A stretch of 64,000 nt of DNA from Nitrospirota bacterium. Its GTDB lineage: Bacteria > Nitrospirota > Thermodesulfovibrionia > Thermodesulfovibrionales > UBA1546. Every line of letters begins with the position of its first letter. Positions within the stretch are counted from its first letter, which is position 1. This document shows positions 8,514 to 32,883 of this stretch, piece by piece. Location of the stretch: contig JACQXE010000037.1 in the NCBI GenBank assembly GCA_016208915.1, positions 4,905 through 68,904 on the forward strand, read 5' to 3'. Both the position numbers and the translations under genes were made by a program. The notes beneath the pieces were generated by a model that did not search any database, had not been told where the DNA came from, and was given only the letters and a program-made list of their open reading frames with translations.

Positions 8514-9026
8514 ATGAGAATAGGTGCCAGAATAAAAAACCTGCGTAGTAGCCAAAGAATTACCTTAAAGGAATTGGCAAAAAGGGCAGATCTCTCTATA
8601 AGTTTTGTCTCTCAGGTTGAGAGGGAAAAGACCTCGCCTTCCTTAGATTCTTTGAGTAAGATTGGTTCTGCCTTAGGGGTAAGTTTGGCACATCTTTTTT
8701 CACAAAGGCAAATCAAAGAAATCATCTTTATTAAAAAAAAGAAAAAGAAGATGCCTTTTTATTTTTCTGTTTTTAATGAGGCATTGGGGATAAAGATGAA
8801 GCCTTTGATTTTGGATTTAAAAGAAAAGGATGTAATCTTTGAGGGAAAAGGAAGAGGAGAAGAATTTGGATACGTGATTAAAGGAGAGATAGAGTTAGAG
8901 ACAAAAGGAGAAAAAGTTATTTTAAATGAAGGAGACAGTGTATATCTTATTAACCCTTTAAGGCACAAATTGGAAAATCTAAGCAACAAAAATTCTGTGG
9001 TTATTTGGGTTATGACAGGAAAATAA
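8514..9026 (+). CDS. XRE-family HTH transcriptional regulator with a C-terminal cupin-like domain
   Basis: N-terminus IKNLRSSQRITLKELAKRADLSISFVSQVEREKTSPSLDSLSKIGSALGV matches HTH_3. C-terminus GYVIKGEIELETKGEKVILNEGDSVYL is cupin-like. Confidence 0.75.
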   Translation: MRIGARIKNLRSSQRITLKELAKRADLSISFVSQVEREKTSPSLDSLSKIGSALGVSLAHLFSQRQIKEIIFIKKKKKKMPFYFSVFNEALGIKMKPLILDLKEKDVIFEGKGRGEEFGYVIKGEIELETKGEKVILNEGDSVYLINPLRHKLENLSNKNSVVIWVMTGK

Positions 9027-9050
9027 TTATTTCTTGTTAAGGAGGTGCAG

Positions 9051-9392
9051 ATGATAAAAGAAAGGAGGGAAAGCCCTCGAATAAAGAAAAGTTTTCCTGT
9101 CTATTGTACTTCTGTTGGTAAAGGTCTTCTGGGGAAAGGGATTGGGCGTAATATTAGCAGGGAAGGTTTGGGTATTGAAATAGAGTCCTCTTTTTCTTTA
9201 GGAGAAGATGTGAAGATGGAAATATACTTACCTTCTGGCAAAAAAACATTTTATTCCATTGAACTTATTGGTAAGGTTGTTTGGGCAAGGAAGAATAATG
9301 AATCTCGAAGAGATTTTTGTAATAACTATTTTATGGGAGTAAGATTTTTGGAGATAGACAAAGAAATCAATGAAAGGTTAGTTTCATTATAA
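9051..9392 (+). CDS. PilZ domain protein (putative c-di-GMP receptor)
   Basis: RRESPR...(N)ISREGLG matches the PilZ RxxxR / D/NxSxxG signature. AAGGAGG lies 5 nt upstream of ATG 9051 (the track start at 9045 is a GTG). Confidence 0.7.
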   Translation: MIKERRESPRIKKSFPVYCTSVGKGLLGKGIGRNISREGLGIEIESSFSLGEDVKMEIYLPSGKKTFYSIELIGKVVWARKNNESRRDFCNNYFMGVRFLEIDKEINERLVSL

Positions 9393-9946: not shown

Positions 9947-10741
9947 ATGAAAGCAATGCCCTTAGCAGAAGATATGAATCCCGTTAGACATTCCGAAGAT
10001 AAGGAAATGACTATATCAAAGGAAAAGACTTTGCATATGTCTAACGGGATGAAAGATATTGTCAATGATATGATTTTCTCTTATGAGGCAAGGATCCAGA
10101 GCATGGAAGCTATTTTTGATGCTACCCATCAAATCCTCCAGGGTTTCCAAGATTCCTTCCTTGATGCAAGACAAGAGGAAAAACTTACCTCTGAACTACG
10201 GGAGACTCTTGCCAAAGACAAGTCTCTAAGAAAGAAGGATTTTGACAATATGATGCAGGGTATTCTTTCAGCTCAAGAGGAGAGGAAAAAGGAAGTAAGG
10301 AATTTGTTAAAAGGTTATCTTAATGGACAGAAAGAGGTAGCACAGACTTTAAAAGATAATCTGGCTAAGGTCAAAGATGTCCTTGTCAGAGGTGAGACTG
10401 GAAGGGTCAAAGAATTCCAAGGCTTGATTAAAGAGATTCTTGCTAAACAAGATGAAAGAAAAGATGAAGTTACCTCTAAGCTGAAAGAGTTTCAAAAAGA
10501 GCAACATGAGATGGCAAAAAGACTCAAAGAACTTTTAACAAAGGGAAGAGAGCTTCGGATAAAGGATCTCAAATTAATGCTTAAGGAATTCAATGCCCAA
10601 TATAAAGAGCGGATAGCCTGCCAGAAAGAAAGAAGGGAAGATGTTTGCAGTATGCTGGGTGAGTTTAAGAAAGAAAGAATAAAAAAGGTGCGGAGGAGTA
10701 AAACCCCCTTTAGAGAGGAACTTATTAATCTAACGGAGTAA
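9947..10741 (+). CDS. Lys/Glu-rich coiled-coil repeat protein, paralogous at its N-terminus to the next ORF (putative gas-vesicle-associated scaffold); start uncertain (possibly ATG 10037)
   Basis: It shares the motif I(F/T)SYE(A/E)R...(A/D)TH..L.GF with ORF 10793. Internal degenerate repeats include ILSAQEERKKEVRNLLKGY, ILAKQDERKDEVTSKLKEF and FNAQYKERIACQKE. Confidence 0.6.
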   Translation: MKAMPLAEDMNPVRHSEDKEMTISKEKTLHMSNGMKDIVNDMIFSYEARIQSMEAIFDATHQILQGFQDSFLDARQEEKLTSELRETLAKDKSLRKKDFDNMMQGILSAQEERKKEVRNLLKGYLNGQKEVAQTLKDNLAKVKDVLVRGETGRVKEFQGLIKEILAKQDERKDEVTSKLKEFQKEQHEMAKRLKELLTKGRELRIKDLKLMLKEFNAQYKERIACQKERREDVCSMLGEFKKERIKKVRRSKTPFREELINLTE

Positions 10742-10792: not shown

Positions 10793-11347
10793 ATGGGAAT
10801 AGCTGAGAGTATGAAAGAGATTACAGAAAATATTATTACTTCCTATGAGGAAAGGGCAAAGGCACTTGGTGATTTGGTATCTGATACCCATGCAACCTTA
10901 AAAGGGTTTGCGCAAGACCGTGAAAAAATGGCTGGTGAGCAACGAGAAACTCTATCTAAATTTACAAAGGATTTGTCAAAGAGCGTAGGAAATATGCTTA
11001 AAGAGTTCAAGAAGGACCATGGACAGATGAGTGATGATCAAACAAAAAACTTAGCAGATTTTATTAAGAATCTGACTAATGATGTAGGTTCAATGTTAAA
11101 TAGGTTTCAAAAGGATCGTGACAAGATGTCAAAGGAACTTAAGAACAAACTCGCTAAAGAGGTAAAAGATATTGGAACCTATGTCAAGCAACTCCTAGGT
11201 GAATATAGCTCGGATATGAAGAAGGCGAAAGAGGCCTGGCAGGGTATGTCTAAGACACTGGCCGAAGAGGCGATTGAAGAAGTGGGCGAAGAAGAAGCAG
11301 TTAGAAAGCCCAAGAAGAAGAGAAAGAAAAGAGGAAAGAAGAAATAG
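10793..11347 (+). CDS. repeat protein with four tandem 33-residue repeats and a poly-Lys tail (GvpC-like by architecture)
   Basis: These segments align without gaps at a 33-aa period: LVSDTHATLKGFAQDREKMAGEQRETLSKFTKD / LSKSVGNMLKEFKKDHGQMSDDQTKNLADFIKN / LTNDVGSMLNRFQKDRDKMSKELKNKLAKEVKD / IGTYVKQLLGEYSSDMKKAKEAWQGMSKTLAEE. Confidence 0.65.
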   Translation: MGIAESMKEITENIITSYEERAKALGDLVSDTHATLKGFAQDREKMAGEQRETLSKFTKDLSKSVGNMLKEFKKDHGQMSDDQTKNLADFIKNLTNDVGSMLNRFQKDRDKMSKELKNKLAKEVKDIGTYVKQLLGEYSSDMKKAKEAWQGMSKTLAEEAIEEVGEEEAVRKPKKKRKKRGKKK

Positions 11348-12503: not shown

Positions 12504-12809
12504 ATGAAAGGAATGTTGCAGATACCCGGCATTAAAGATATAAAAAGTACACATTCTGTAGGTGCACGGTCTATTCCAAAGGTACAAAGGTCAAGTTATT
12601 TAGAATTATATATGCGTAGAAGAGAGAAGGATAGATTAGAGAAAGAAATCTTCGCGTTAGATAAAAGAAGAGACACAGCGAATAGGCAATTGAACAGCAT
12701 CAATAAGCAAATTGAAAAATTACAGAAAGAAGTGCACGAAGAGCAAAAGATTAATACTTATAGAGGGATACCTACAAGGCCGCTTAAGACAATGGCTATA
12801 AATTATTAA
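12504..12809 (+). CDS. small coiled-coil protein of unknown function within the gvp island
   Basis: 101 aa. SYLELYMRRREKDRLEKEIFALDKRRDTANRQLNSINKQIEKLQKE shows a heptad-like pattern. I recognise no family. Confidence 0.5.
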   Translation: MKGMLQIPGIKDIKSTHSVGARSIPKVQRSSYLELYMRRREKDRLEKEIFALDKRRDTANRQLNSINKQIEKLQKEVHEEQKINTYRGIPTRPLKTMAINY

Positions 12810-12933: not shown

Positions 12934-13004
12934 GTCATGCTGAATTTATTGCAGCATCTAATAATGTCAAGGGTTATGAGATCCTGAAACAAGTTCAGGA
13001 TGAC
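12934..13004. repeat. hairpin repeat element (GTCAT...ATGAC family, 'ctgaa..ttcag' subtype)
   Basis: gtcatgctgaatttattgcagcat...atcctgaaacaagttcaggatgac. Confidence 0.8.
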
Positions 13005-13048
13005 AAAAAGAGACTTTTTCAAGAGCTCGATTATAAAGGTTGATATCT

Positions 13049-13435
13049 ATGATTGGGGATAAAAAAGAAATAAAGAGAATAGAGAAATTAATTAAAAAGG
13101 CGCAGAGGTCTTTAAGATTATCGTCTTATAAAATTAGATGTAATCTTGTAAAGGCTGATTATTCAGAATATGCCGGGATAATTTGCCAACATCCAAAAAG
13201 AACAGCGACAATAGATTTTAATAGAAAAAGGATTCATCAGGAATTAGAAAATACTGTAATTCACGAATTACTGCATTTATTATTTAATAAACATCTGAGT
13301 GTTGCAGAGGATGTTTTTGAAAGACAGAGAAAATATAAAAGCTTACGGAAATATCAAAAAGGCGAAGAGAAAATAATCAATATTTTAGCGCCCTTGCTTG
13401 AGAAGGTAATTTTTGAAAATCAAAGGAGAAGGTAG
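13049..13435 (+). CDS. small HExxH-motif protein (putative Zn-metallopeptidase-like)
   Basis: The motif is VIHELLHLLF. The ORF ends 2 nt before the Hsp20 gene. I prefer ATG 13049 over the TTG at 13040. Confidence 0.5.
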   Translation: MIGDKKEIKRIEKLIKKAQRSLRLSSYKIRCNLVKADYSEYAGIICQHPKRTATIDFNRKRIHQELENTVIHELLHLLFNKHLSVAEDVFERQRKYKSLRKYQKGEEKIINILAPLLEKVIFENQRRR

Positions 13436-13437
13436 TC

Positions 13438-13977
13438 ATGGCAAAAGAAAAAAAGAAAAGGAAAGAGGAAGAAGAAGGATTGGATATTGATTTTGGCATA
13501 GGTAAATTGAGTCTGGGGGGGTTATTTAAAGGCATTGAGAATTTAGTTGACCTTGCCGCTAAGTTAAAAGAAGCAGGTGGTGAAATTAAGAAAGAAGGCG
13601 AGATTGACCTGAGCCGACTTAAAGAAGGCATGAAGGGGGTCTATGGTTTTTCAATAAAGACAGCAGTTGGCGGAAAACCGATGGTTGAGACATTTGGCAA
13701 TATCAAAAAGACACCTGAAGGACCTGTCGTAGAAGAAGAAAGAGAGCCCTTAACAGATGTGTTTGATGAGAAAGACGAAGTAGTGGTTATATCTGAAATT
13801 CCGGGAGTTCATGAGGAAGGTATATCGGTAGATTTAAAGGGGGACATACTGGAGATTTCAGCAGTGGGCAAAAGCAGAAAATATCGTAAAGAAGTCCTCC
13901 TGCCAGTGCAGGTCAAGAAGGAAACACTTTCTTATACATTTAAGAACGGTATCTTAGAAGTTAGAATTAAAAAGTGA
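13438..13977 (+). CDS. Hsp20/alpha-crystallin family small heat-shock protein with a Lys/Glu-rich N-terminal extension
   Basis: The C-terminal PLTDVFDEKDEVVVISEIPGVHEEGISVDLKGDILEISA...LPVQVKKETLSYTFKNGILEVRI matches an alpha-crystallin domain. Confidence 0.8.
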   Translation: MAKEKKKRKEEEEGLDIDFGIGKLSLGGLFKGIENLVDLAAKLKEAGGEIKKEGEIDLSRLKEGMKGVYGFSIKTAVGGKPMVETFGNIKKTPEGPVVEEEREPLTDVFDEKDEVVVISEIPGVHEEGISVDLKGDILEISAVGKSRKYRKEVLLPVQVKKETLSYTFKNGILEVRIKK

Positions 13978-13981
13978 AACG

Positions 13982-14082
13982 GTCATGCCGACAATTAGGC
14001 ACAAAGGGGAATGAAAAACTGTCATTCCCGCGCAGGCGGGAATCCAGAAAGACACTGGATTCCGTGTCAAGCACGGAATGAC
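13982..14082. repeat. compound hairpin repeat element (GTCAT...ATGAC family)
   Basis: gtcatgccgacaattaggcac... followed by gtcattcccgcgcaggcgggaatccagaaagacactggattccgtgtcaagcacggaatgac. Track ORF 14011..14223 translates it. Confidence 0.8.
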
Positions 14083-14098
14083 AAAATTTTGATAATAG

Positions 14099-15112
14099 GT
14101 GGATGGCATTATAAGCGGACTATTAGAGCCGTCATTGAAGCTGATTCTATTCGGCGGGAAGGGAGGTGTTGGGAAGACTACCTGCGCCGCAAGTGCAGGG
14201 CTTTATTTAGCAAACAACAATAAGAATACCTTGCTTATCTCCACTGACCCAGCACATTCTTTATCGGACAGTCTGGGCAAGGAGATTACGAATGAGATAA
14301 CGCAGATAAAAGGAGTAGATAAATTAAGTGCTATGGAGATAAGCGCGGAAAAGGCATTGTCAAGTTTCAAAGCAGAATATCAAGATGAACTGAAAAGACT
14401 CTTTGATACAAGCACTTATTTAGATAAGGAAGATATAGATTCCATACTTGAGCTGCCTATACCAGGCATAGACGAGGTAATGGGATTCAAGGTCATTGTG
14501 GATTTAATTGAAAAGGAAGAATTTGACAAATACGTAGTGGATACTGCGCCAACAGGCCATGCCCTGAGGCTTTTGACTCTGCCTGAACTCTTAGATGACT
14601 GGATAAAGGTTCTGGCAAAGATGAGATGGAAATACAGATATATGGTTACTACCTTTGCCGGTAAATACAGGCCTGACAGCGCTGATGATTTTCTTATGAG
14701 CATGAAAAAAACAGTCAAAAAAATTGAGGGGCTGCTGAAAGATGAGAACAGATGTGAATTCATAGTTGTCACGATCCCTGAGGATATGGCTATTAAAGAA
14801 ACAGAGAGGCTGATAAGAAATCTGAATCAATACGGGATGAAGGTGAAGCAGTTGATTATCAACAATGTTATTCCAGAGGGAGACAGGTGCAGTTTTTGTC
14901 AAGCGAGGAGAAAAGGCCAGGACAAATATATCAAAGAGATTAGAGATAAATTTAGCGATTTAAATATAACGGTTATTCCCCTTCAGCCCCACGAGGTAAA
15001 AGGGATAAATGCACTGAAAAACTTAGAAAGTATGATATTTAGCAAGAACGCACAATGTCACCCTGAACTTGATTCAGGGTCTAAAAGAGACGCTGAAACG
15101 AGCCTGCCCTGA
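14099..15112 (+). CDS. Get3/ArsA-family ATPase with a CxxC motif; the last ~20 codons are repeat-derived
   Basis: P-loop GGKGGVGKTT, STDPAHSLSD, DTAPTGHALRLL, and CSFCQARRKGQDKYIKEI...VIPLQPHEVKGINALKNL, which resembles the Get3 CxxC dimer-zinc region. The C-terminal HPELDSGSKRDAETSLP is the translated hairpin repeat. Confidence 0.8.
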   Translation: MDGIISGLLEPSLKLILFGGKGGVGKTTCAASAGLYLANNNKNTLLISTDPAHSLSDSLGKEITNEITQIKGVDKLSAMEISAEKALSSFKAEYQDELKRLFDTSTYLDKEDIDSILELPIPGIDEVMGFKVIVDLIEKEEFDKYVVDTAPTGHALRLLTLPELLDDWIKVLAKMRWKYRYMVTTFAGKYRPDSADDFLMSMKKTVKKIEGLLKDENRCEFIVVTIPEDMAIKETERLIRNLNQYGMKVKQLIINNVIPEGDRCSFCQARRKGQDKYIKEIRDKFSDLNITVIPLQPHEVKGINALKNLESMIFSKNAQCHPELDSGSKRDAETSLP

Positions 15113-15161
15113 AGAGATTCTGAACCAAGTTCAGAATGACACTTTCAGGGTTCAGCATGAC
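15057..15161. repeat. compound hairpin repeat element (GTCA...ATGAC family) spanning the Get3-like/Cdc48-like junction
   Basis: gtcaccctgaacttgattcagggt...gattctgaaccaagttcagaatgac...ttcagcatgac. Confidence 0.8.
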
Positions 15162-15180
15162 AATTGAGAGGTATTTTCGA

Positions 15181-17304
15181 ATGAATAATAATGAAAGTTT
15201 CATAACCTTAAAAGTAAAAGAGGCATTACCTAAAGATGTGGGAAGGGCGATAGTTAGAATAGACCCTGAGGATATGAAAAAATTGGGGGTTGAGGTAGGC
15301 GAGATTATAGAGATTAGCGGTAAAAGGCAAACACCAGCCAAGGTAATGCCCTGCTATGCCGAAGAAAGGAACAAAGGGATTATTCAGATAGATGGAATAA
15401 CAAGGGAAAATGCACAGATCGGGATAGATGAAAAGGTAAAGATTCAAAAAGTAAAAGCTAAGCCGGCAAGTAAGATTACATTAGTGCCTCTGAACATATC
15501 AGGTCTTATGAATAAGGATAAGGATATTAAGTATATCGGTTCATTGATCGGAGGGCTTCCACTGACTGTCGGCGATAGGATTAGAGCCAGTCTTTTTGGG
15601 GCAAGAGCCTGTGACTTCAAAGTAGTAGATACAATTCCTGATGGGGTTGTGCTTATCGAGCCCACAACTCTAATCAAGATAAAAGATAAAGGAACAAAAG
15701 ATATAAAAGAGACACGTATATCCTATGAGGATATAGGCGGACTCCACACTCAGATTCAGAGAATCAGAGAGATGATTGAACTCCCACTTAAATACCCTCA
15801 GATTTTTGAAAGATTGGGGATTGGCGCGCCCAAAGGGGTTTTTTTATACGGCCCTCCAGGCACTGGTAAGACTCTGATAGCACGGGCAGTAGCGAATGAG
15901 ACAGAGGCATATTTTACTCATATATCAGGACCTGAAATAATGGGCAAATTTTATGGTGAGAGTGAAGCCCGCTTAAGAAGTGTATTTGAAGATGCGCAAA
16001 AACATGCCCCTGCCATAATCTTTATTGATGAGATAGACGCCATTGCCCCTAAGAGAGAAGAGATGGGCGGAGAGAAGCAGGTTGAGCGGAGGGTTGTGGC
16101 TCAGCTCTTAGCACTGATGGATGGATTAGAATCAAGGGGTGAGGTTATAGTTATAGCTGCAACCAATATCCCTAATGTTATAGACCCGGCATTGAGGCGG
16201 CCGGGTAGATTTGATAGAGAAATTTCAATTCCTATACCCGACAGAAATAGCAGACTCGAGATACTCCAAATTCATACAAGGGGGATGCCCCTATCAGAAG
16301 ATGTAAGTCTTGAAAAGTTAGCCGATATTACCCATGGATTTGTTGGAGCAGACTTAGAGGCATTAGCCAGAGAAGCAGCGATGTCGGCTTTAAGAAAAAT
16401 TCTACCTGAGATCGATTTTGAGCTGGCAGATATTCCTTATGAAACACTCATGGAGCTTCAAGTGACTATGGATAATTTCTTAGAAGCCATGAAAGAGGTT
16501 GAACCATCAGCAATTAGAGAATTTTTTGTAGAGGTGCCTGATGTCAAATGGGAGGATGTGGGTGGTCTTGAGAATATTAAAGAGGAACTAAAGGAGGCAA
16601 TTGAATGGCCTCTTAAATATTCTGATATTTTTAAAAAGGCAGGCACAAATCCTCCTAAGGGAATTTTACTCTATGGAGTTCCTGGTACAGGTAAAACCCT
16701 TTTAGCCAAAGCAGTGGCTAATGAGAGTGGAGTGAATTTCATCTCAGTCAAAGGACCGAGTTTGATATCGAAGTATGTCGGCGAAAGTGAGCGTGGAATC
16801 CGTGAGGTCTTTAAAAAGGCAAAGCAGGCATCACCTACAATCCTATTTTTTGATGAGATAGACAGCCTTGTTCCCAAAAGGGGTTCAGGAGGCTCTGATT
16901 CTCAGGTAACAGAACGAGTGATAAGCCAATTCCTGACTGAGATGGATGGAATTGAAGAACTTAAGGGCGTGGTAGTTTTAGCCGCTACTAATAGATTAGA
17001 CCTGATTGACCCTGCTATCTTACGCAGCGGCAGATTTGACCTTTTGCTTGAGTTGCCTGTGCCTGATGAAAAAACGAGAGAAGAAATATTCAGAATACAT
17101 ACTGAAAATAAACCGCTGGCTGATGACGTTGATTTGAAAGAGTTAGCTAAAGAGACTGAAGGTAAGGTGGGCTCTGATATTGAGTTTATCTGTCGGAAGG
17201 CTTCTATGTTGGCGATAAGAGAGTTTATAGAGCACCGGCAAAATTTAAAGTTTTTGAGAAAGCATTTTCAAGATGCTATCAAGTTAATCCAAAGGGAGGT
17301 TTAA
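15181..17304 (+). CDS. Cdc48/VAT-type double AAA+ ATPase (N-domain + D1 + D2)
   Basis: Cdc48-N-like [42 protein letters not shown]. Two Walker A motifs, GPPGTGKTL and [12 protein letters not shown] 15181 with a GAGAGG SD is preferred, because the track start at 15136 lies inside the repeat. Confidence 0.9.
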
Positions 17305-17485
17305 AATAGCAAAGATTATTGAGAAGATTAAGAATTTCTTCAAAGGCAAAAAGAAAGAAGAGCCTAAAGCCCAACAGGAAAAACCTAAAACAGAAGAGAA
17401 GCCTGAAGAACAAAAATAGTAGAAAAGAATAAAAGGATCACTAAAAGGGGAGGGTGGATAATCCTCTCGATATAAATTTTTGATA

Positions 17486-18511
17486 ATGGCTGAAATAGAA
17501 GGTATATATATCTACGGTATTGTTGATACTGCAGGAGAGAAAAGTCTCGGCATTGCTGGAATCACTGCGTATGGAGAGGTCTATACAATTCCACATCAGG
17601 ATATTTCTGCGGTTGTAAGTGATTCACAATTTGTAGATTACACCGCTCTTTCTAAGGATCGAGTTGCAAGATATCTTCTTGCTCACCAGCAGGCAATAGA
17701 GAAGATTATGGATTCTCATACCATTATTCCTGTGAAGCTCGGCACTTATGCCTTTAATATCAGAGAGGTAGAGGAGATTTTATCAAAGGGATACACAATG
17801 TTTAAAGATGTATTCAGGACGATCAATAACAAGATTGAGATTGATGTGGTAGCAACATGGAACGATTTGAATTCAGTAATTAAAGAGATCGGCGAAGACG
17901 AAAAGATTAAAGAGCTTAAAGAAAAGCTGATGTCTAAGCCTGAAGGTATATCTCTTGAAGACCAAATGAAGATAGGCAGTCTCATTAAGGATATTTTATA
18001 TATAAAGAGAGAAAAACTTGCCTCTGAAATAGGGACTGTATTAAGAAAGGTGAGTATAGATTCAAGGGCACATGGTCTTATGGATGACAGGATGATCTTT
18101 AATGCCGCCCTTCTTATAGATAAGGATAAAAGGGCTGAATTAGAGAAAGGATTAGATGAGATGAATGGGTTGTACAATGAAAAAATAGATTTTAAATGTG
18201 TTGGCCCTTTACCTCCATATAGTTTTTACACTGTAGAGGTTAAGAAGATCCCTTTTGGTGAGATAGATTGGGCAAAAGAAAAATTGGGCATTGATAACAT
18301 ACCAACAAAGGAAGATATCATAAAAGCATACCGCAGCAAAGCCAACTTATATCATCCAGATAAGAACAGAGGCGCTTCGGATGCAGACAGGCAATTTAAT
18401 GAAGTATTCAGGGCGTACAAAATCCTCCTTGAATACTGTCAAGAAGAAACTTGTTCATTTGATGAAAAAGAGTTCGGTCAAGATGCCATCATTGTAAAGA
18501 TAAGAGATTAA
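17486..18511 (+). CDS. GvpF/GvpL family protein fused to a C-terminal J-domain (DnaJ-like, HPD motif)
   Basis: N-terminus IYIYGIVD...ISAVVSD...HQQAIEKIMDSHTIIPVKLGT...FNAALLIDK...GPLPPYSF matches GvpL/F. C-terminus TKEDIIKAYRSKANLYHPDKNRGASDADRQFNEVFRAYKILLEY is a J-domain. Confidence 0.85.
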   Translation: MAEIEGIYIYGIVDTAGEKSLGIAGITAYGEVYTIPHQDISAVVSDSQFVDYTALSKDRVARYLLAHQQAIEKIMDSHTIIPVKLGTYAFNIREVEEILSKGYTMFKDVFRTINNKIEIDVVATWNDLNSVIKEIGEDEKIKELKEKLMSKPEGISLEDQMKIGSLIKDILYIKREKLASEIGTVLRKVSIDSRAHGLMDDRMIFNAALLIDKDKRAELEKGLDEMNGLYNEKIDFKCVGPLPPYSFYTVEVKKIPFGEIDWAKEKLGIDNIPTKEDIIKAYRSKANLYHPDKNRGASDADRQFNEVFRAYKILLEYCQEETCSFDEKEFGQDAIIVKIRD

Positions 18512-19283: not shown

Positions 19284-19790
19284 ATGTTATCAGGGACAGA
19301 AGCAGATATTATAAATACTGTTGCCAGATTAAAAGAGGCAACCAAGGACCAACTAAGAAAAGAGGTAGGTTTTTCTTCAGATTATATTAGCTATTTATGT
19401 GGATATTTGGTCAGAAAAGGTTATCTAAATTTTTCTGATGGGCATTATTCTCTGGCAAGGATGGAAATAAAGACTTTGCGGAGAGAAGATACACAGATCG
19501 ACAGGGAGTTAATCAAAGAGATTGCCAATGAGGTTGCTGGAGAGCTCAGTGGTAAGTTAAGAAAAACAGTAAAAGAGATAAAAATACCGGTTGCACAGAT
19601 AAGGCAGAAAGCAAAACAGATACCAGAAGAAAAAATAAATCCCGATTTTGAATTTCCTGTAGAGGATGAAAGTTTAGCCTTAGAAAGTAATATCAATAAA
19701 ATAGGGCCAAACTTAGAAAAAGAGAAATCTAACATTGACAGGTTAGTGAAATTATTTAAAAAAATTCAAAAGAGATGGAGGAAAAGATGA
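19284..19790 (+). CDS. winged-helix (MarR/TrmB-like) N-terminal domain protein, putative regulator
   Basis: EADIINTVARLKEATKDQLRKEVGFSSDYISYLCGYLVRKGYL is wHTH-like. The C-terminal half is charged. Confidence 0.5.
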   Translation: MLSGTEADIINTVARLKEATKDQLRKEVGFSSDYISYLCGYLVRKGYLNFSDGHYSLARMEIKTLRREDTQIDRELIKEIANEVAGELSGKLRKTVKEIKIPVAQIRQKAKQIPEEKINPDFEFPVEDESLALESNINKIGPNLEKEKSNIDRLVKLFKKIQKRWRKR

Positions 19791-20881
19791 ACAATGGGAA
19801 TGAAGAAAAGGAGACAAAGGACATTAAAGGACAAAAAGGTAAGGGAGTTGATATAGGGACAGTATTTGTAAAGTGTGCGTACACAGATAGTGATGAAGTC
19901 ATATTCAAGTCGCAGCGAAACGCCTTCTTTGAAGTAGAATATGCAGGTTTTACTATTACTAAGAAGATATTCGATGACCGTGGAATAAAATATGTTATAA
20001 AAGACGATAAACTTTATGTTGTAGGCAATGATACATTACAATTTGCCAATATATTTAATAAAGAGACAAGAAGGCCCCTAAGTAATGGTGTGATTAGTTC
20101 AACAGAAAAAGAGGCCCTTCCTATAGTAGAACTATTGATAAAGAGCGTGGTGGGTGAGCCTGCTGTCAAAGATGAGATAGTCTACTTTTCCGTCCCGGGT
20201 GAGCCTCTGGATGCAGATTTTAATATCATATATCATATAAAGACCCTTGAAGGATTCCTAAAGACTCTCGGTTATACCCCAAAGCCGATAAATGAAGCCC
20301 TGGCGGTTATATTATCCGAGTTAGCCGATAAAGACTTTACCGGAATCGGCATTTCTTTTGGTGGCGGGATGGTCAATGTCTGCCTGAGTTTTATGTCTGT
20401 GCCCATTTTTAAGTTTTCGGTTATCAGGGCAGGTGACTGGATAGACCAGCAGGTCGCTATGGCAGTGGATGAGGCAGCCACCCGTGTATCAGCGATAAAG
20501 GAATTCTCTCTTAATTTGAGTAGGGAAAAAGAATTAGGCAAGATAGAAAACGCCCTCTCCATATATTACAATGACCTCATTGGGTATGTAATTGAACATA
20601 TAAAGCAGGAGCTTGATAAGGCAGGGGGAGGGCCTGCTATGGCTAAGCCTGTAACTATTGTCCTATCTGGAGGTACTTCACTTCCCAAGGGTTTTGCCCA
20701 TAGGTTTAAACAGATTTTGGATCATTTGAAATTCCCTATTCCAGTTGGCGAGGTAAGGATGGCAGCACAACCTTTAAGTTCGGTAGCTAAGGGAGCATTG
20801 ATTGCTGCAAGGTCAGAAGGGGATAATAGTCAAACATCTGCTTCTAATAGGGCAAATGGAAGCATCCTTGAAAGAAGGTAA
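19775..20881 (+). CDS. actin/Hsp70-fold (ASKHA superfamily) ATPase, MreB/ParM-like size
   Basis: Phosphate-1 GVDIGTVFVK, phosphate-2 GIGISFGGGMVNV, and adenosine motif IVLSGGTSLPKGF. 368 aa. Confidence 0.7.
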   Translation: MEEKMNNGNEEKETKDIKGQKGKGVDIGTVFVKCAYTDSDEVIFKSQRNAFFEVEYAGFTITKKIFDDRGIKYVIKDDKLYVVGNDTLQFANIFNKETRRPLSNGVISSTEKEALPIVELLIKSVVGEPAVKDEIVYFSVPGEPLDADFNIIYHIKTLEGFLKTLGYTPKPINEALAVILSELADKDFTGIGISFGGGMVNVCLSFMSVPIFKFSVIRAGDWIDQQVAMAVDEAATRVSAIKEFSLNLSREKELGKIENALSIYYNDLIGYVIEHIKQELDKAGGGPAMAKPVTIVLSGGTSLPKGFAHRFKQILDHLKFPIPVGEVRMAAQPLSSVAKGALIAARSEGDNSQTSASNRANGSILERR

Positions 20882-22128: not shown

Positions 22129-23033
22129 TGTCGGCTCATGAGAAGGTGACGGGGATGAGGGAAAAATTAATATATGTTTATTGTGTTAGTCACAAAGAAC
22201 CGAATTTTAAAGATTCAGATTTAGGTAACTCCCACACCAAAATTTTTGGTGTGAGGGTTTACCCTATTTGCCACCAGGACCTTTATGCTGTGGTTAGTAA
22301 GGTTTCAGAGGATGAATTTACTGAGGAAAACTTAAAGAAGAATTTGTCCGATATGAAGTGGGTAGAGTCTAATGTCTTGAGGCATGAGGAAGTAATTGAA
22401 GAGATAATGAGAGATTGCACTGTTATTCCGTTTAAATTCGCCACTATTTTTAAGACAGAGGAAAATGTAAAGGCTTTGCTTGAAGAACACACCGAGGAAT
22501 TTAAAAAAAGTCTTGAGGGATTAGAAGGCAAAGAAGAATGGGGCATTAAGGTGTATTGTAATATTGATATTCTAAAGACAAATCTTATAAAGGAAAATGA
22601 GGAAATAAAAAGGATGGAGCAGGATATTAAATTGTCTTCTGCTGGCAAGGCTTATTTATTAATGAAAAAGAGGGATGGGTTAATAGAAAGTATTCTAAAT
22701 AAGAAAATCAATGAGTATGGTCAGGATATTTTTGAAGAACTTAATGCACTAAGCAGAGATACACGCATCAATAAACTATTGCCGAAAGAAGTAACTGAGC
22801 AAAAAGATGAGATGATCCTGAATGCTGCCTTTTTGATTGATACATGCAAAATCATAGTGTTTATTGATACTGCAATTTTTCTAAAGGAAAAATATAAAGA
22901 TAAGGGGCTCAACCTTAATTGCACAGGTCCCTGGCCCCCTTATAATTTCTGTTCGATAAACCCCATTAGTAGTGGGAGAGATTCAAATCTGTTTGAGACT
23001 CCTAAGGGGGTAAAGAAGGAAAAGGCAATATGA
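22125..23033 (+). CDS. GvpL/GvpF family gas vesicle protein
   Basis: LIYVYCV...LYAVVSKV...HEEVIEEIMRDCTVIPFKFAT...LNAAFLID...GPWPPYNF. Confidence 0.8.
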   Translation: MMSAHEKVTGMREKLIYVYCVSHKEPNFKDSDLGNSHTKIFGVRVYPICHQDLYAVVSKVSEDEFTEENLKKNLSDMKWVESNVLRHEEVIEEIMRDCTVIPFKFATIFKTEENVKALLEEHTEEFKKSLEGLEGKEEWGIKVYCNIDILKTNLIKENEEIKRMEQDIKLSSAGKAYLLMKKRDGLIESILNKKINEYGQDIFEELNALSRDTRINKLLPKEVTEQKDEMILNAAFLIDTCKIIVFIDTAIFLKEKYKDKGLNLNCTGPWPPYNFCSINPISSGRDSNLFETPKGVKKEKAI

Positions 23034-23710
23034 GCAGTGTTGTCCTGGAATCTAAGAATATAACCTTAGTAGAAACCCTAGACAGGGTGCTAAATAAAGG
23101 GGTAATTCTGAGCGGAGATATTACAATTTCTGTTGCTGATGTGGATTTAATCTTTGTAGGGTTGAAGGTATTACTTGCCTCTGTCGAGACAGCCGAGAAA
23201 ATGCGTTTAGGATATAAAAATGATAGGTGGAATGGGAAAAATGGCGAAACGAAGAATGAAAATACATCACCCTCCCCTCTATCCCCTCCCGTCAAGGGAG
23301 GGGAGTTTATGAGAGGCCCCTCTCCCTTGGCGGTCGCCTCATTCTCCTCAGCGAACCCGCCTGAGTGCGGGGGCGACTCGTCGAGGAGAGGAGAGGGCAA
23401 GGGTGAGGGGAGATTTTCGGAGCAACCCAAAGAGATAAAGGCAGTTCTCCCGAGAATTGATGCCGAGCCAGAAAAGGTTGAGCAAGGGCTATCAAAATTA
23501 GTATTAACTCTTATAGACTTGCTCAGAAAACTTATGGAGAAACAGGCTATAAGAAGAATAGACGGGGGTTCTCTTTCTGACAACGAGGTAGAAAAGCTTG
23601 GATATACGTTTATGAGATTAGAAAATAAGATGGAAGAGTTAAAAAAGGTATTTGGGCTTAAGGATGAAGACCTGAACTTAAACTTAGGTCCCTTAGGGGA
23701 TTTGATGTGA
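23030..23710 (+). CDS. fusion ORF: GvpA-like (GvpS/J/M-type) N-domain, then a GC-rich repeat-derived linker, then a GvpK-like C-domain
   Basis: N-domain: LVETLDRVLNKGVILSGDITISVADVDLIFVGLKVLLASVETAEKM. C-domain: EKVEQGLSKLVLTLIDLLRKLMEKQAIRRIDGGSLSDNEVEKLG...DLNLNLGPLGDL, the GvpK signature. I found no ATG/GTG/TTG in frame just upstream of the K part. Confidence 0.75.
   Translation: MSSVVLESKNITLVETLDRVLNKGVILSGDITISVADVDLIFVGLKVLLASVETAEKMRLGYKNDRWNGKNGETKNENTSPSPLSPPVKGGEFMRGPSPLAVASFSSANPPECGGDSSRRGEGKGEGRFSEQPKEIKAVLPRIDAEPEKVEQGLSKLVLTLIDLLRKLMEKQAIRRIDGGSLSDNEVEKLGYTFMRLENKMEELKKVFGLKDEDLNLNLGPLGDLM
23266..23414. repeat. GC-rich nested-palindrome repeat block inserted in frame inside the GvpA-like/GvpK ORF
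   Basis: tcaccctcccctctatcccctcccgtcaagggagggg...cccgcctgagtgcggg...gagggcaagggtgaggggag. It contrasts sharply with the AT-rich flanks and translates to SPSPLSPPVKGGE...GEGKGEG. Confidence 0.75.
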
Positions 23711-32132: not shown

Positions 32133-32883
32133 ATAGGGACACATCCCATTATTACCCTGCTTTCTTCCTGGGTCTGCCCCGTGGTCTCAGCGCTAAGTCC
32201 CTTCCGGTTTTTCTTTCCATCCTTTTCATGAACGCTTCATCTCCAAGCGGTTTGCCTGTCCTCGTATGATAGCGTATCAAGTCCCTGTCTTTCTCTGCGC
32301 TCGTTTCTCTGATAAACTCCCTGTAATCCTTTCTCTGTGTTTCTGCAATAAGCTCCTCGTTTAAAAGGTCGTCTGGTTTCCCCATTATATGAGCCCGCGC
32401 ACTTGAGTATGCGTAGTCTTCTGCTTTTTTCACCATCCGGGCACGTACAGGGTTCGTCTCTATGTATCTTGCAACTGCCCAGAGATAGGAATCCTTATCC
32501 ACAATGCAGGAATGGTACCTGCTCTCCCATAATCTTCCTGTGCGGCTATATTTTCTGTTTGTAAATTGTGTGTAGCAAAGCGTAACTCCCTGCATCATTT
32601 TGTACAGGGAATCGTTTTCTTTGGGCTTAATCAGCAGATGCACATGGTTTGACATCAGACAATAGGCCAGTATCCGGGCATCTCTTTCCATGGAATATTT
32701 TTTCTTATGTTTAATATATTTTTCCCGGTCTTCATCGTCACTGAATACCTTTTCTCTGTTGTTTCCCCTCTGCACTACATGATGTGGAAAACCGGCTGCA
32801 ACGGCCCGTGCGATTCTTGCCATGTCGAAATTCTACCGGAGAGAGGCGGGCTTGTCAAGTAAAATAGGATGTGTCCCTATTTA
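32130..32883. mobile_element. RAYT-type transposase unit bounded by 21-bp inverted repeats
   Basis: taaatagggacacatcccatt (32130-32150) is the reverse complement of aataggatgtgtccctattta (32863-32883) at 20 of 21 positions. The repeats flank ORF 32152..32823. Confidence 0.8.
32152..32823 (-). CDS. REP-associated tyrosine transposase (RAYT) / IS200-like Y1 HUH transposase family
   Basis: PHHVVQRGNNRE..., HUH motif LMSNHVHLLIKP, and ARYIETNPVRARMV (catalytic Tyr region). Confidence 0.85.
   Translation of the reverse strand: MARIARAVAAGFPHHVVQRGNNREKVFSDDEDREKYIKHKKKYSMERDARILAYCLMSNHVHLLIKPKENDSLYKMMQGVTLCYTQFTNRKYSRTGRLWESRYHSCIVDKDSYLWAVARYIETNPVRARMVKKAEDYAYSSARAHIMGKPDDLLNEELIAETQRKDYREFIRETSAEKDRDLIRYHTRTGKPLGDEAFMKRMERKTGRDLALRPRGRPRKKAG

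Follow-up and report, generated by a model that had tools for sequence, protein, structure and literature searches.

Three adjacent genes of a Nitrospirota metagenome-assembled genome (MAG) encode a small heat-shock protein (sHsp) of the Hsp20 family, a single-domain ATPase of the ArsA/Get3 family and a Cdc48/VAT-type double-ring AAA+ protein, and the three genes lie inside a gas-vesicle (gvp) operon. We analyzed the window that contains them, a stretch of 64,000 nucleotides of contig JACQXE010000037.1, and we consider it rather probable that the block is a protein-quality-control module dedicated to gas vesicles and carried by one widespread type of gvp operon. The original prediction had described three contiguous open reading frames (ORFs) within a gvp operon, and all three were found there, on the forward strand: hsp20 at 13438-13977 (179 amino acids), the ATPase gene at 14099-15112 (337 amino acids) and cdc48 at 15136-17304 (722 amino acids). 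Their products were assigned as a GvpH-like, archaeal-type sHsp (from Pfam, NCBIfam, AlphaFold2 (AF2)/Foldseek and a conservation profile), as a member of a gas-vesicle-linked clade of the ArsA/Get3 family (from Pfam, NCBIfam, PDB/Foldseek comparisons and alignment) and as a Cdc48/VAT-type protein with its N domain (from Pfam, TIGR01243 and the VAT structure 5g4f). The block faces gvpN on its upstream side and, downstream, a forward-strand gene (17480-18511) coding for a GvpF/L protein fused to a C-terminal J domain (GvpL_GvpF, 4.1e-53; DnaJ, 1.9e-12). The surrounding gvp operon, delimited by Pfam scans, covers about 15 kb of the forward strand, from 9563 to at least 24048.

Conservation of the block across gvp operons

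We scanned genomes for relatives of the ATPase using one genome per GTDB species, which yielded at least 513 relatives, and the best 80 loci were annotated by tblastn with the window's own genes. Genes of the gvp type were present in 69 of these best 80 loci, and 6 of the 11 loci devoid of them are contigs shorter than 4 kb that still show Hsp20 and/or Cdc48. Among the same 80, the contiguous order Hsp20-ATPase-Cdc48 was found in 47 of the 61 loci with room on both sides and in 47 of the 51 loci with at least 50% ATPase identity, an arrangement that is not due to chance. In a reciprocal scan of metagenomes seeded with Cdc48, 80 loci at 76-86% identity were examined and 74 contained gvp genes. 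A protein on public record under the name of the Nitrospirota MAG is 100% identical. ATPase homologues at 74-88% identity are also abundant in metagenomes, and the long contigs carrying them had the same operon in 3 cases out of 3. The association of the triad with gvp genes in public genomes, which the original prediction had suggested counting, is thus strong and reciprocal.

The same operon order occurred in loci labelled as many phyla. Record titles name Nitrospirota, Nitrospinota, Desulfobacterota, Bacteroidota (including Ignavibacteria and Chlorobi), Omnitrophota, Planctomycetota, Elusimicrobia, Chlamydiota, Cloacimonetes, Victivallales, Patescibacteria, Chloroflexota and others, more than 10 phyla in all. 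Since the operon region has a lower guanine-plus-cytosine (GC) content than the flanking DNA and the branching of the ATPase tree departs from taxonomy, the gvp cluster looks horizontally mobile, and the module was probably spread by horizontal transfer. No tRNA gene, as a marker of an island border, was found in the 64-kb window.

The view of the three genes as one fixed unit held in part: it agrees with the contiguous genome loci, but among the metagenome loci with room upstream of Cdc48 the upstream neighbour was the ATPase in 45 of 65 and Hsp20 directly in the other 20. Hsp20 lay at most two genes upstream of Cdc48 in every testable Cdc48-seeded locus, and wherever the intervening ATPase was lacking the two genes were adjacent or overlapping. 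Six of these 20 loci possess a tandem ArsA-type pair after gvpG, two show one ArsA-type match cut by the contig end, and 12 have no ArsA match in the retrieved stretch. Such a variable presence of the ATPase argues against an obligatory, strictly linear three-step relay. The GvpF/L-J fusion, which keeps the HPD motif, followed Cdc48 directly in 57 of 62 metagenome loci as well as in most of the genome loci; it is likely to be a fourth part of the module, one that the original prediction did not include. Hsp20, Cdc48 and GvpF-J together make up the constant unit. The Get3-like ATPase occurs frequently, but its place, its number of copies and its state of fusion vary, and at times it is missing. 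In some loci, namely L001 (13094-14584) and L003 (13068-14570), three extra genes stand between cdc48 and gvpF-J; they encode a 206-amino-acid ORF, a second Hsp20-like ORF of 170 amino acids and a response-regulator receiver. Apparent ATPase-Cdc48 gene fusions (ORFs of 1030 and 1059 amino acids in L025 and L035) were ruled out, a stop codon separating the two genes.

More distant clusters show the same partners in other arrangements. In Chloroflexota-type clusters, including those of the cultured Dictyobacter vulcani W12 and D. aurantiacus S27 (L074, L078), Hsp20 is next to Cdc48, and the ATPase, without CxxC, lies between gvpF and gvpG. The gvp cluster of Nostoc sphaeroides plasmid p4 (L086, 3986-7769) carries a two-domain ArsA-family gene, again without CxxC, followed by a gene for a 613-amino-acid Cdc48-type AAA protein that is 50% identical to D1-D2 of the window Cdc48 and has no N domain. 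In the papers on cyanobacterial gvp clusters that we checked, ArsA and AAA genes of this type are not discussed.

These surveys bear on the idea that sHsp and Cdc48 form a general archaeal-type stress operon that simply travels with a mobile gvp island and acts on the proteome at large, without having Gvp proteins as specific clients. The closest solved structures of all three proteins are archaeal (Sulfolobus Hsp20.1, Methanocaldococcus and Methanothermobacter Get3, Thermoplasma VAT), the low GC of the island and the discordant ATPase tree would fit such a passenger, and in Euryarchaeota genes for an sHsp and an AAA+ ATPase share a general heat-shock regulon (Phr in Pyrococcus, HSR1 in Archaeoglobus). 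However, the euryarchaeal pair belongs to a general stress regulon, whereas the pair described here sits in a bacterial gvp operon together with GvpF-J and often with a Get3-like gene. The euryarchaeal ATPase is one that we take to be of the Cdc48 type. Passive hitch-hiking would be expected to decay over the distances covered, yet the in-operon position is kept across many phyla and gvp genes accompany Cdc48 in nearly all the Cdc48-seeded loci; in addition, the adjoining GvpF-J fusion ties a chaperone function directly to Gvp proteins. We therefore consider a general stress operon unlikely.

The ATPase carries Get3-type features

Public annotation ('ArsA family ATPase' or 'arsenite-transporting ATPase') and the Pfam ArsA_ATPase match (1.9e-90) would make the ATPase a bona fide subunit of an arsenite/antimonite pump, ArsA, placed next to gvp genes by accident. 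In the ArsA pump, a polypeptide of about 583 amino acids contains two homologous halves, whereas our ATPase has one P-loop and is a single-domain protein of the homodimer type. It shares 27-30% identity with true ArsA from an Enterobacter arsRDABC operon (L085), which contains two P-loops. The broad GET3/ArsA/TRC40 model of NCBIfam (TIGR00345) was passed with 307 bits, but the ArsA equivalog models were by far not reached (TIGR04291, 152 bits for a cut-off of 650; NF041417, 189 bits for a cut-off of 800). No cysteine was found at the ATPase positions aligned to Cys113, Cys172 and Cys422, the metalloid-binding residues of E. coli ArsA. The ATPase falls into no ArsA clade, its best relatives lie mostly among gvp genes (see above), and tblastn with ArsR, ArsD and ArsB (arsC and acr3 not being part of the query) gave no homologue in the window. 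From identity, curated scores, single-domain architecture, lack of the metalloid cysteines and lack of ars neighbours, we conclude that the protein is not an arsenite pump, an explanation that can be regarded as effectively refuted.

As had been proposed, the ATPase resembles Get3 instead. In a sequence search of the PDB, archaeal Get3 was the best single-domain match, with 213-216 bits against 145 bits for E. coli ArsA; the tandem Chlamydomonas ARSA1 outscores archaeal Get3 solely by summing its two halves. With the AF2 model (pLDDT, the predicted local distance difference test, of 81.9), the top 50 Foldseek matches in the PDB were all Get3/TRC40 proteins, archaeal ones first. The structures of M. 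jannaschii (3ug6) and M. thermautotrophicus (3zq6) Get3 share 36-38% identity with the ATPase and gave query-normalised template modelling (TM) scores of 0.72-0.77. Like these proteins, the ATPase is a single domain in the range of 310-340 amino acids, with the same P-loop, switches and A-loop, the CxxC columns and a long insert after switch II; unlike them, it has an insert shorter by 7-9 residues with fewer methionines, carries the motif RWKYRY, lies in a gas-vesicle operon and branches in a separate clade.

We then considered the motifs in two alignments of homologues, comprising 17 and 67 sequences. The deviant Walker A (GKGGVGKTT), switch I (DPAHS), switch II (DTAPTGH) and A-loop (PLQPHEVKG) are intact, being invariant or at least 90% conserved in both alignments, and the ATPase also contains CSFCQARRKGQDKYIKEI. 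The switch I aspartate, D50, aligns with yeast D57. The CxxC motif, C264-S-F-C267 (14888-14899, forward strand), aligns column for column with the dimer-interface, zinc-binding CxxC of Get3 from M. jannaschii, M. thermautotrophicus, S. pombe and A. fumigatus, which bears out the parallel to Get3/TRC40 drawn in the original prediction. C264 does not vary in either alignment, C267 is fully conserved in the 17 sequences and at least 90% conserved in the 67, and CxFC is kept by nearly all loci in which the ATPase is sandwiched between the other two genes. The protein would be a CxxC homodimer, presumably linked by zinc. The helical insert after switch II, which in Get3 is the client-binding element, measures 63 amino acids here, compared with 67-72 in Get3 and 36-49 in ArsA; its hydrophobic fraction is similar to that of Get3 (0.48) and it contains 7 aromatic residues. 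In the model, a long helix within this insert (residues 154-186) contains RWKYRYM (residues 176-182; 14624-14644, forward strand), of which R176, W177, K178, Y179, R180 and Y181 are invariant in both alignments and M182 is at least 90% conserved.

The same comparisons concern the possibility that the ATPase is a ParA/MinD-like protein which positions or spaces gas vesicles, perhaps together with the volactin-type actin encoded in the same operon, and is not a chaperone. ParA and MinD belong to the same SIMIBI class as ArsA/Get3, and weak Pfam matches to CbiA, ParA and AAA_31 were recorded. Against this, none of the 50 best fold matches was a ParA or MinD protein, the Get3-type helical insert and the CxxC are absent from ParA/MinD, and volactin is present in a minority of the loci while the ATPase is common. 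We regard such a role as very unlikely.

A neighbour-joining (NJ) tree (200 bootstraps, capped distances, small reference set) was built, of which the root split was used. The expectation that phylogeny would set the ATPase apart from ArsA was confirmed as it lies outside the ArsA halves, but the gvp-linked proteins form a clade of their own and are not nested within archaeal or eukaryotic Get3; the exact sister group of this clade is not fixed by such a small distance-based set. Some of its members are tandem proteins or lack CxxC. We thus assign the ATPase to an ArsA/Get3-family clade that is linked to gas vesicles and shows Get3-type features, and we do not call it a Get3 orthologue. No Get1/2-like receptor candidate was identified for the gvp-linked ATPase, and we know of no such receptor and no tail-anchored client for it. 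The nearest ATPase relatives without gvp neighbours come from Cytophagales (L066, 9935-10954, and L068); they are 53% identical and lack the first cysteine of CxxC. In L066, 10 kb of flanking sequence on each side contains no gvp, hsp20 or cdc48 gene, and L068 is a contig of 9.3 kb.

The Hsp20 and Cdc48 proteins

The scores of Hsp20 against curated families all lie near the thresholds: 23.8 bits for Pfam HSP20 (cut-off 20.8), 22.3 bits for Pfam GvpH (cut-off 22; residues 26-177 covered) and 142.3 bits for the NCBIfam 'archaeal Hsp20' model NF041800 (cut-off 140), the last with a strong E-value of 9.8e-42; Pfam ArsA_HSP20, at 19.7, stays below its cut-off. The closest solved relative by sequence is the crystallin domain of Sulfolobus Hsp20.1 (4rzk, 64 bits), which is also the best fold match of the AF2 model (target-normalised TM score 0.90, root-mean-square deviation 1.1 Å, 44% identity). 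The alpha-crystallin domain spans residues 100-179, with pLDDT values of 87-96 in the blocks covering 101-179, and residues 1-97 are modelled with pLDDT below 50. The N-terminal part had been described as an unusual charged extension. This applies to the variable, K/E-rich tip of about 13 residues (1-13), but the rest, about 85 residues from 14 to 100, is strongly conserved among related loci and typical of the subfamily; given its conservation and its model, we propose this region as a candidate client- or partner-binding segment. The C-terminal IxI/V tail is absent from the protein, which stops at the last strand of the crystallin domain (...GILEVRIKK). This tail is what builds large sHsp oligomers. 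A homologue search with Hsp20 gave only near-identical gvp-linked proteins.

Two known proteins invite comparison with Hsp20. Haloarchaeal GvpH is a non-essential accessory protein that prevents aggregation of GvpM and that, in Halobacterium, pairs with GvpI. The GvpH match of our Hsp20 is marginal, the archaeal Hsp20 model being far better, and the genetic partner here is Cdc48, not GvpI. Get3d of plants, cyanobacteria and green bacteria is a Get3-fold ATPase with a C-terminally fused alpha-crystallin domain, in which the CxxC helix is absent and the active site is often degenerate (PMC10248533). The window, in contrast, encodes Hsp20 and the ATPase as separate genes, and its ATPase keeps both the CxxC and intact catalytic motifs. 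The top 50 fold matches of the Hsp20 model include no Get3d chain, and gas vesicles are not mentioned in the Get3d paper.

Cdc48 was assigned with high scores. It contains CDC48_N (4.5e-28), CDC48_2 (3e-12), two AAA domains and two lids, it reaches 967 bits with TIGR01243 (cut-off 803), and its best solved match is Thermoplasma VAT (5g4f, 773 bits, full length). An intact N domain and two Walker A motifs, as originally described, are thus present. Walker A and B are intact in both rings (GPPGTGKT/IIFIDEID in D1, GVPGTGKT/ILFFDEID in D2), and the pore loops are aromatic (KFY in D1, shared by 44 of 49 homologues, and KYV in D2); these features fit a processive, translocating unfoldase. The protein is like VAT in its full N-D1-D2 architecture and its aromatic D1 pore loop, which in VAT is KYY. 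It differs from archaeal Cdc48/VAT by its setting in a gvp operon and by its C-terminus (...KLIQREV), which has no HbYX (hydrophobic residue, tyrosine, any residue) motif; such a tail was seen in 1 of 51 homologues. HbYX is the feature by which an archaeal, proteasome-coupled subset docks on the 20S particle and is not common to the whole Cdc48 family. Its absence makes direct docking on the 20S proteasome unlikely. We also considered anti-phage defence, which was rejected: PADLOC returned generic AAA similarity for Cdc48 and nothing for Hsp20 or the ATPase.

Possible function in gas-vesicle assembly or recycling

The shell proteins GvpA, GvpJ and GvpM are about 70-100 residues long and extremely hydrophobic, and how GvpA stays soluble and inserts into a growing vesicle is an open question. 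GvpA has 71 residues, so its hydrophobic hairpin would leave the ribosome only around termination; capture would consequently be post-translational, the same problem as for tail-anchored proteins. In the mechanism that we propose, the core of the module would consist of the GvpH-like sHsp acting as a holdase, the Cdc48/VAT unfoldase and the GvpF/L-J protein, and the Get3-type ATPase, here placed between sHsp and Cdc48, would be a frequent add-on. The sHsp and the Get3-like dimer would keep the hydrophobic segments of GvpA, GvpJ and GvpM soluble and pass them to the GvpF/L nucleation complex. From its sequence, the J domain on GvpF/L implies that host Hsp70 may be recruited to this complex. Subunits that had aggregated or been wrongly assembled would be unfolded or pulled out by Cdc48 and could be used again. 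Precedents for single elements of this scheme are the heat-shock regulon that euryarchaeal sHsp and AAA+ genes share, the Get3d proteins with their fused crystallin domain, the action of haloarchaeal GvpH on GvpM, the co-occurrence of ArsA homologues with gvp genes and the ArsA-family and Cdc48-type AAA genes paired in the Nostoc cluster. A relay from holdase to targeting factor to unfoldase, as first imagined for the triad, is a plausible hypothesis. The domains, the state of the motifs, the order of the genes and their close, reciprocal linkage to gvp genes are established by the analysis; the clients, the order of hand-over, the binding of zinc and the choice between assembly and recycling are the parts of this module that we infer.

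Several points weigh against a dedicated module of this kind, or against the part given to the ATPase within it. Joint transcription with the structural genes is compatible with assembly and with recycling alike, and the taxonomic labels of the MAGs on which the breadth of distribution depends may be unreliable. No ArsA-type gene was found in two loci, L126 and L133, whose retrieved stretches extend from gvpA as far as the final gvpJ. The gvp-linked ATPases are split from a group made of archaeal Get3, fungal Get3, CrArsA1 and the ArsA halves with 100% bootstrap. The client-binding insert contains 4 methionines, compared with 6-9 in archaeal Get3, and bears the invariant basic/aromatic RWKYRY, features that, from sequence comparison, could point to a specific partner surface and not to a generic hydrophobic groove. 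Finally, to our knowledge the best-studied gas-vesicle systems (Halobacterium, Anabaena flos-aquae, B. megaterium and Serratia) are not described with Cdc48 or Get3-like genes, and the module is consequently accessory.

The other function that has to be weighed is disassembly, in which Cdc48, for which the sHsp would be the adaptor, would remove GvpA from aged or collapsed shells, the ATPase would hold the extracted hydrophobic subunits, buoyancy would be lowered and the subunits could be reused. There is no way to re-inflate vesicles that have collapsed or become surplus. Cdc48/VAT works as a motor that extracts and unfolds proteins, both of its rings having active pore loops, its lack of a proteasome-docking tail fits release and not degradation, and the conserved N-region of the sHsp, with its low-confidence model, is what is expected for an adaptor or client-binding segment. 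Nevertheless, the genes lie in the middle of a biosynthetic operon, between gvpN and gvpF, and are hence made together with the shell proteins; moreover, the present data do not tell extraction from finished shells apart from proofreading during assembly, and a recycling machine is largely a sub-case of the dedicated quality-control module. Taken as an exclusive function, recycling appears possible but doubtful, and the data leave room for a module that may serve assembly, the recycling of collapsed vesicles, or both.

A bolder form of the assembly hypothesis, which we put forward tentatively and hold to be rather improbable, is that bacteria have recruited a Get3-type ATPase to a targeting pathway that ends at a protein shell growing at a gas-water interface, and not at a lipid membrane. 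GvpA, GvpJ and GvpM would be captured after translation, as tail-anchored proteins are by Get3, and handed to GvpF/L; the sHsp would be a pre-targeting holdase similar to Get4/Sgt2, for which the crystallin interface of Get3d offers a comparison, and Cdc48 would be the extraction and proofreading arm. If true, bacterial Get3-like proteins would for the first time have a defined class of clients, and gas vesicles a chaperone-assisted route of assembly.

Relation to known gas-vesicle systems

Chaperone-like accessory genes in gvp clusters are already known as a kind. Castillo and Saier 2010 (PMC2963123) described gvp clusters that contain an ArsA-family gene and hsp20, and no ars genes in the vicinity, from Bacteroidetes/Chlorobi, Geobacter, cyanobacteria and Acidobacteria, and proposed that the ATPase energises a step of biogenesis and that Hsp20 acts as a chaperone. 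The ArsA homologues of that study are two-domain proteins of about 637 amino acids, whereas the window ATPase is single-domain with CxxC, and Cdc48 is not mentioned there. A 2017 study found that ArsA co-evolves with gvp genes in cyanobacteria. In the open-access literature, we found no paper linking Get3 to gas vesicles, only incidental co-mentions of Cdc48 and gas vesicles, and nothing relevant joining gas vesicles to Nitrospirota or volactin. What appears to be undescribed is an ATPase of this family in single-domain form with CxxC, a core in which Hsp20, Cdc48 and GvpF-J are constant, and how broadly this core is distributed.

GvpA-family proteins aggregate without helpers and, when overproduced, impose proteotoxic stress. 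In E. coli this stress arises from the aggregation of GvpA, which is also chiefly responsible for the toxicity of gas vesicles expressed as acoustic reporter genes. Because engineering screens chose gvp clusters with few non-gvp genes, factors of the sHsp, Cdc48, GvpF-J and Get3-like types have probably not yet been tried in engineering, where they may be of use. Many lineages, mostly uncultured, carry this chaperone set in their gvp operon, which provides concrete and directly testable candidates. The module also offers a defined, genetically linked set of candidate clients for bacterial Get3-like ATPases, and a setting in which a bacterial Cdc48 seemingly acts independently of a proteasome.

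Neighbouring genes of the operon

The operon begins with gvpA (9563), followed by genes for two coiled-coil proteins, gvpN, an ORF of 101 amino acids, an ORF of 131 amino acids and the triad. After the triad come the gvpF/L-J fusion, gvpF, a small ORF of the winged helix-turn-helix (wHTH) type, the volactin-type actin gene, gvpF and gvpG, and then a gvpO-like gene, gvpL, a gvpJ-gvpK fusion and gvpJ. With the J-domain fusion included, the operon contains four gvpF/L paralogues. Directly upstream of gvpA, the region 8514-9392 (forward strand) encodes an XRE-cupin regulator and a PilZ-domain protein, the latter hinting at control of buoyancy by cyclic di-GMP. In L001 and L003, histidine kinases and a sigma-54 activator are found upstream instead.

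The coiled-coil proteins (9947-10741 and 10793-11347, forward strand) are paralogues with weak apolipoprotein- or phasin-like matches, and the pair is present in nearly all related loci. No gvpC was detected, and these proteins may be functional analogues of GvpC. The coiled-coil ORF of 101 amino acids between gvpN and hsp20 (12504-12809, forward strand) matched no Pfam or NCBIfam family above threshold; tblastn found counterparts in most related loci across phyla, also between gvpN and hsp20. The ORF of 131 amino acids (13040-13435, forward strand), which has a HELLH motif and a weak SprT-like match and adjoins a REP-like (repetitive extragenic palindromic) palindrome, is without a counterpart in all 160 related loci and appears to be an insertion specific to the window between the 101-amino-acid ORF and hsp20.

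The actin-like gene (19284-20881, forward strand) belongs to the volactin family (PF25216, 1.3e-93), with weak similarity to MamK/MreB. It is preceded by the wHTH-like ORF, of 168 amino acids; the pair recurs in L004/L009 and L047, and volactin was also seen in L065 and among the metagenome loci, where 7 of 80 have it. A genetic tie between an actin-like filament and gas vesicles seems to be unreported. Near the end of the operon, a single ORF (23030-23710, forward strand) joins a GvpA/J-type Gas_vesicle domain (residues 12-50) to a GvpK domain (residues 142-226) by a low-complexity linker rich in P, S and G; the two domains are encoded by separate genes in some loci.

Intergenic spacers within the block are near zero in the related loci inspected, and in L003 and L004 the genes abut or overlap. 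In the window, the spacers of the triad are widened by REP-like elements: a palindrome (GTCATTCC...GGAATGAC, 14020-14083) occupies the hsp20-ATPase spacer, and an inverted-repeat pair is found at 12979-13005 and 15056-15082, the second copy at the end of the ATPase gene. The last ~20 residues of the ATPase (QCHPELDSGSKRDAETSLP) are not conserved, the conserved protein ending near 15058, and the C-terminal 18-20 codons are a read-through into the REP-like palindrome. Elsewhere in the window, a reverse-strand ORF (32152-32823) has the look of a REP-associated tyrosine (IS200-like) transposase, as judged from its translation without a family-library scan, and it adjoins a tyrosine-recombinase-like ORF.

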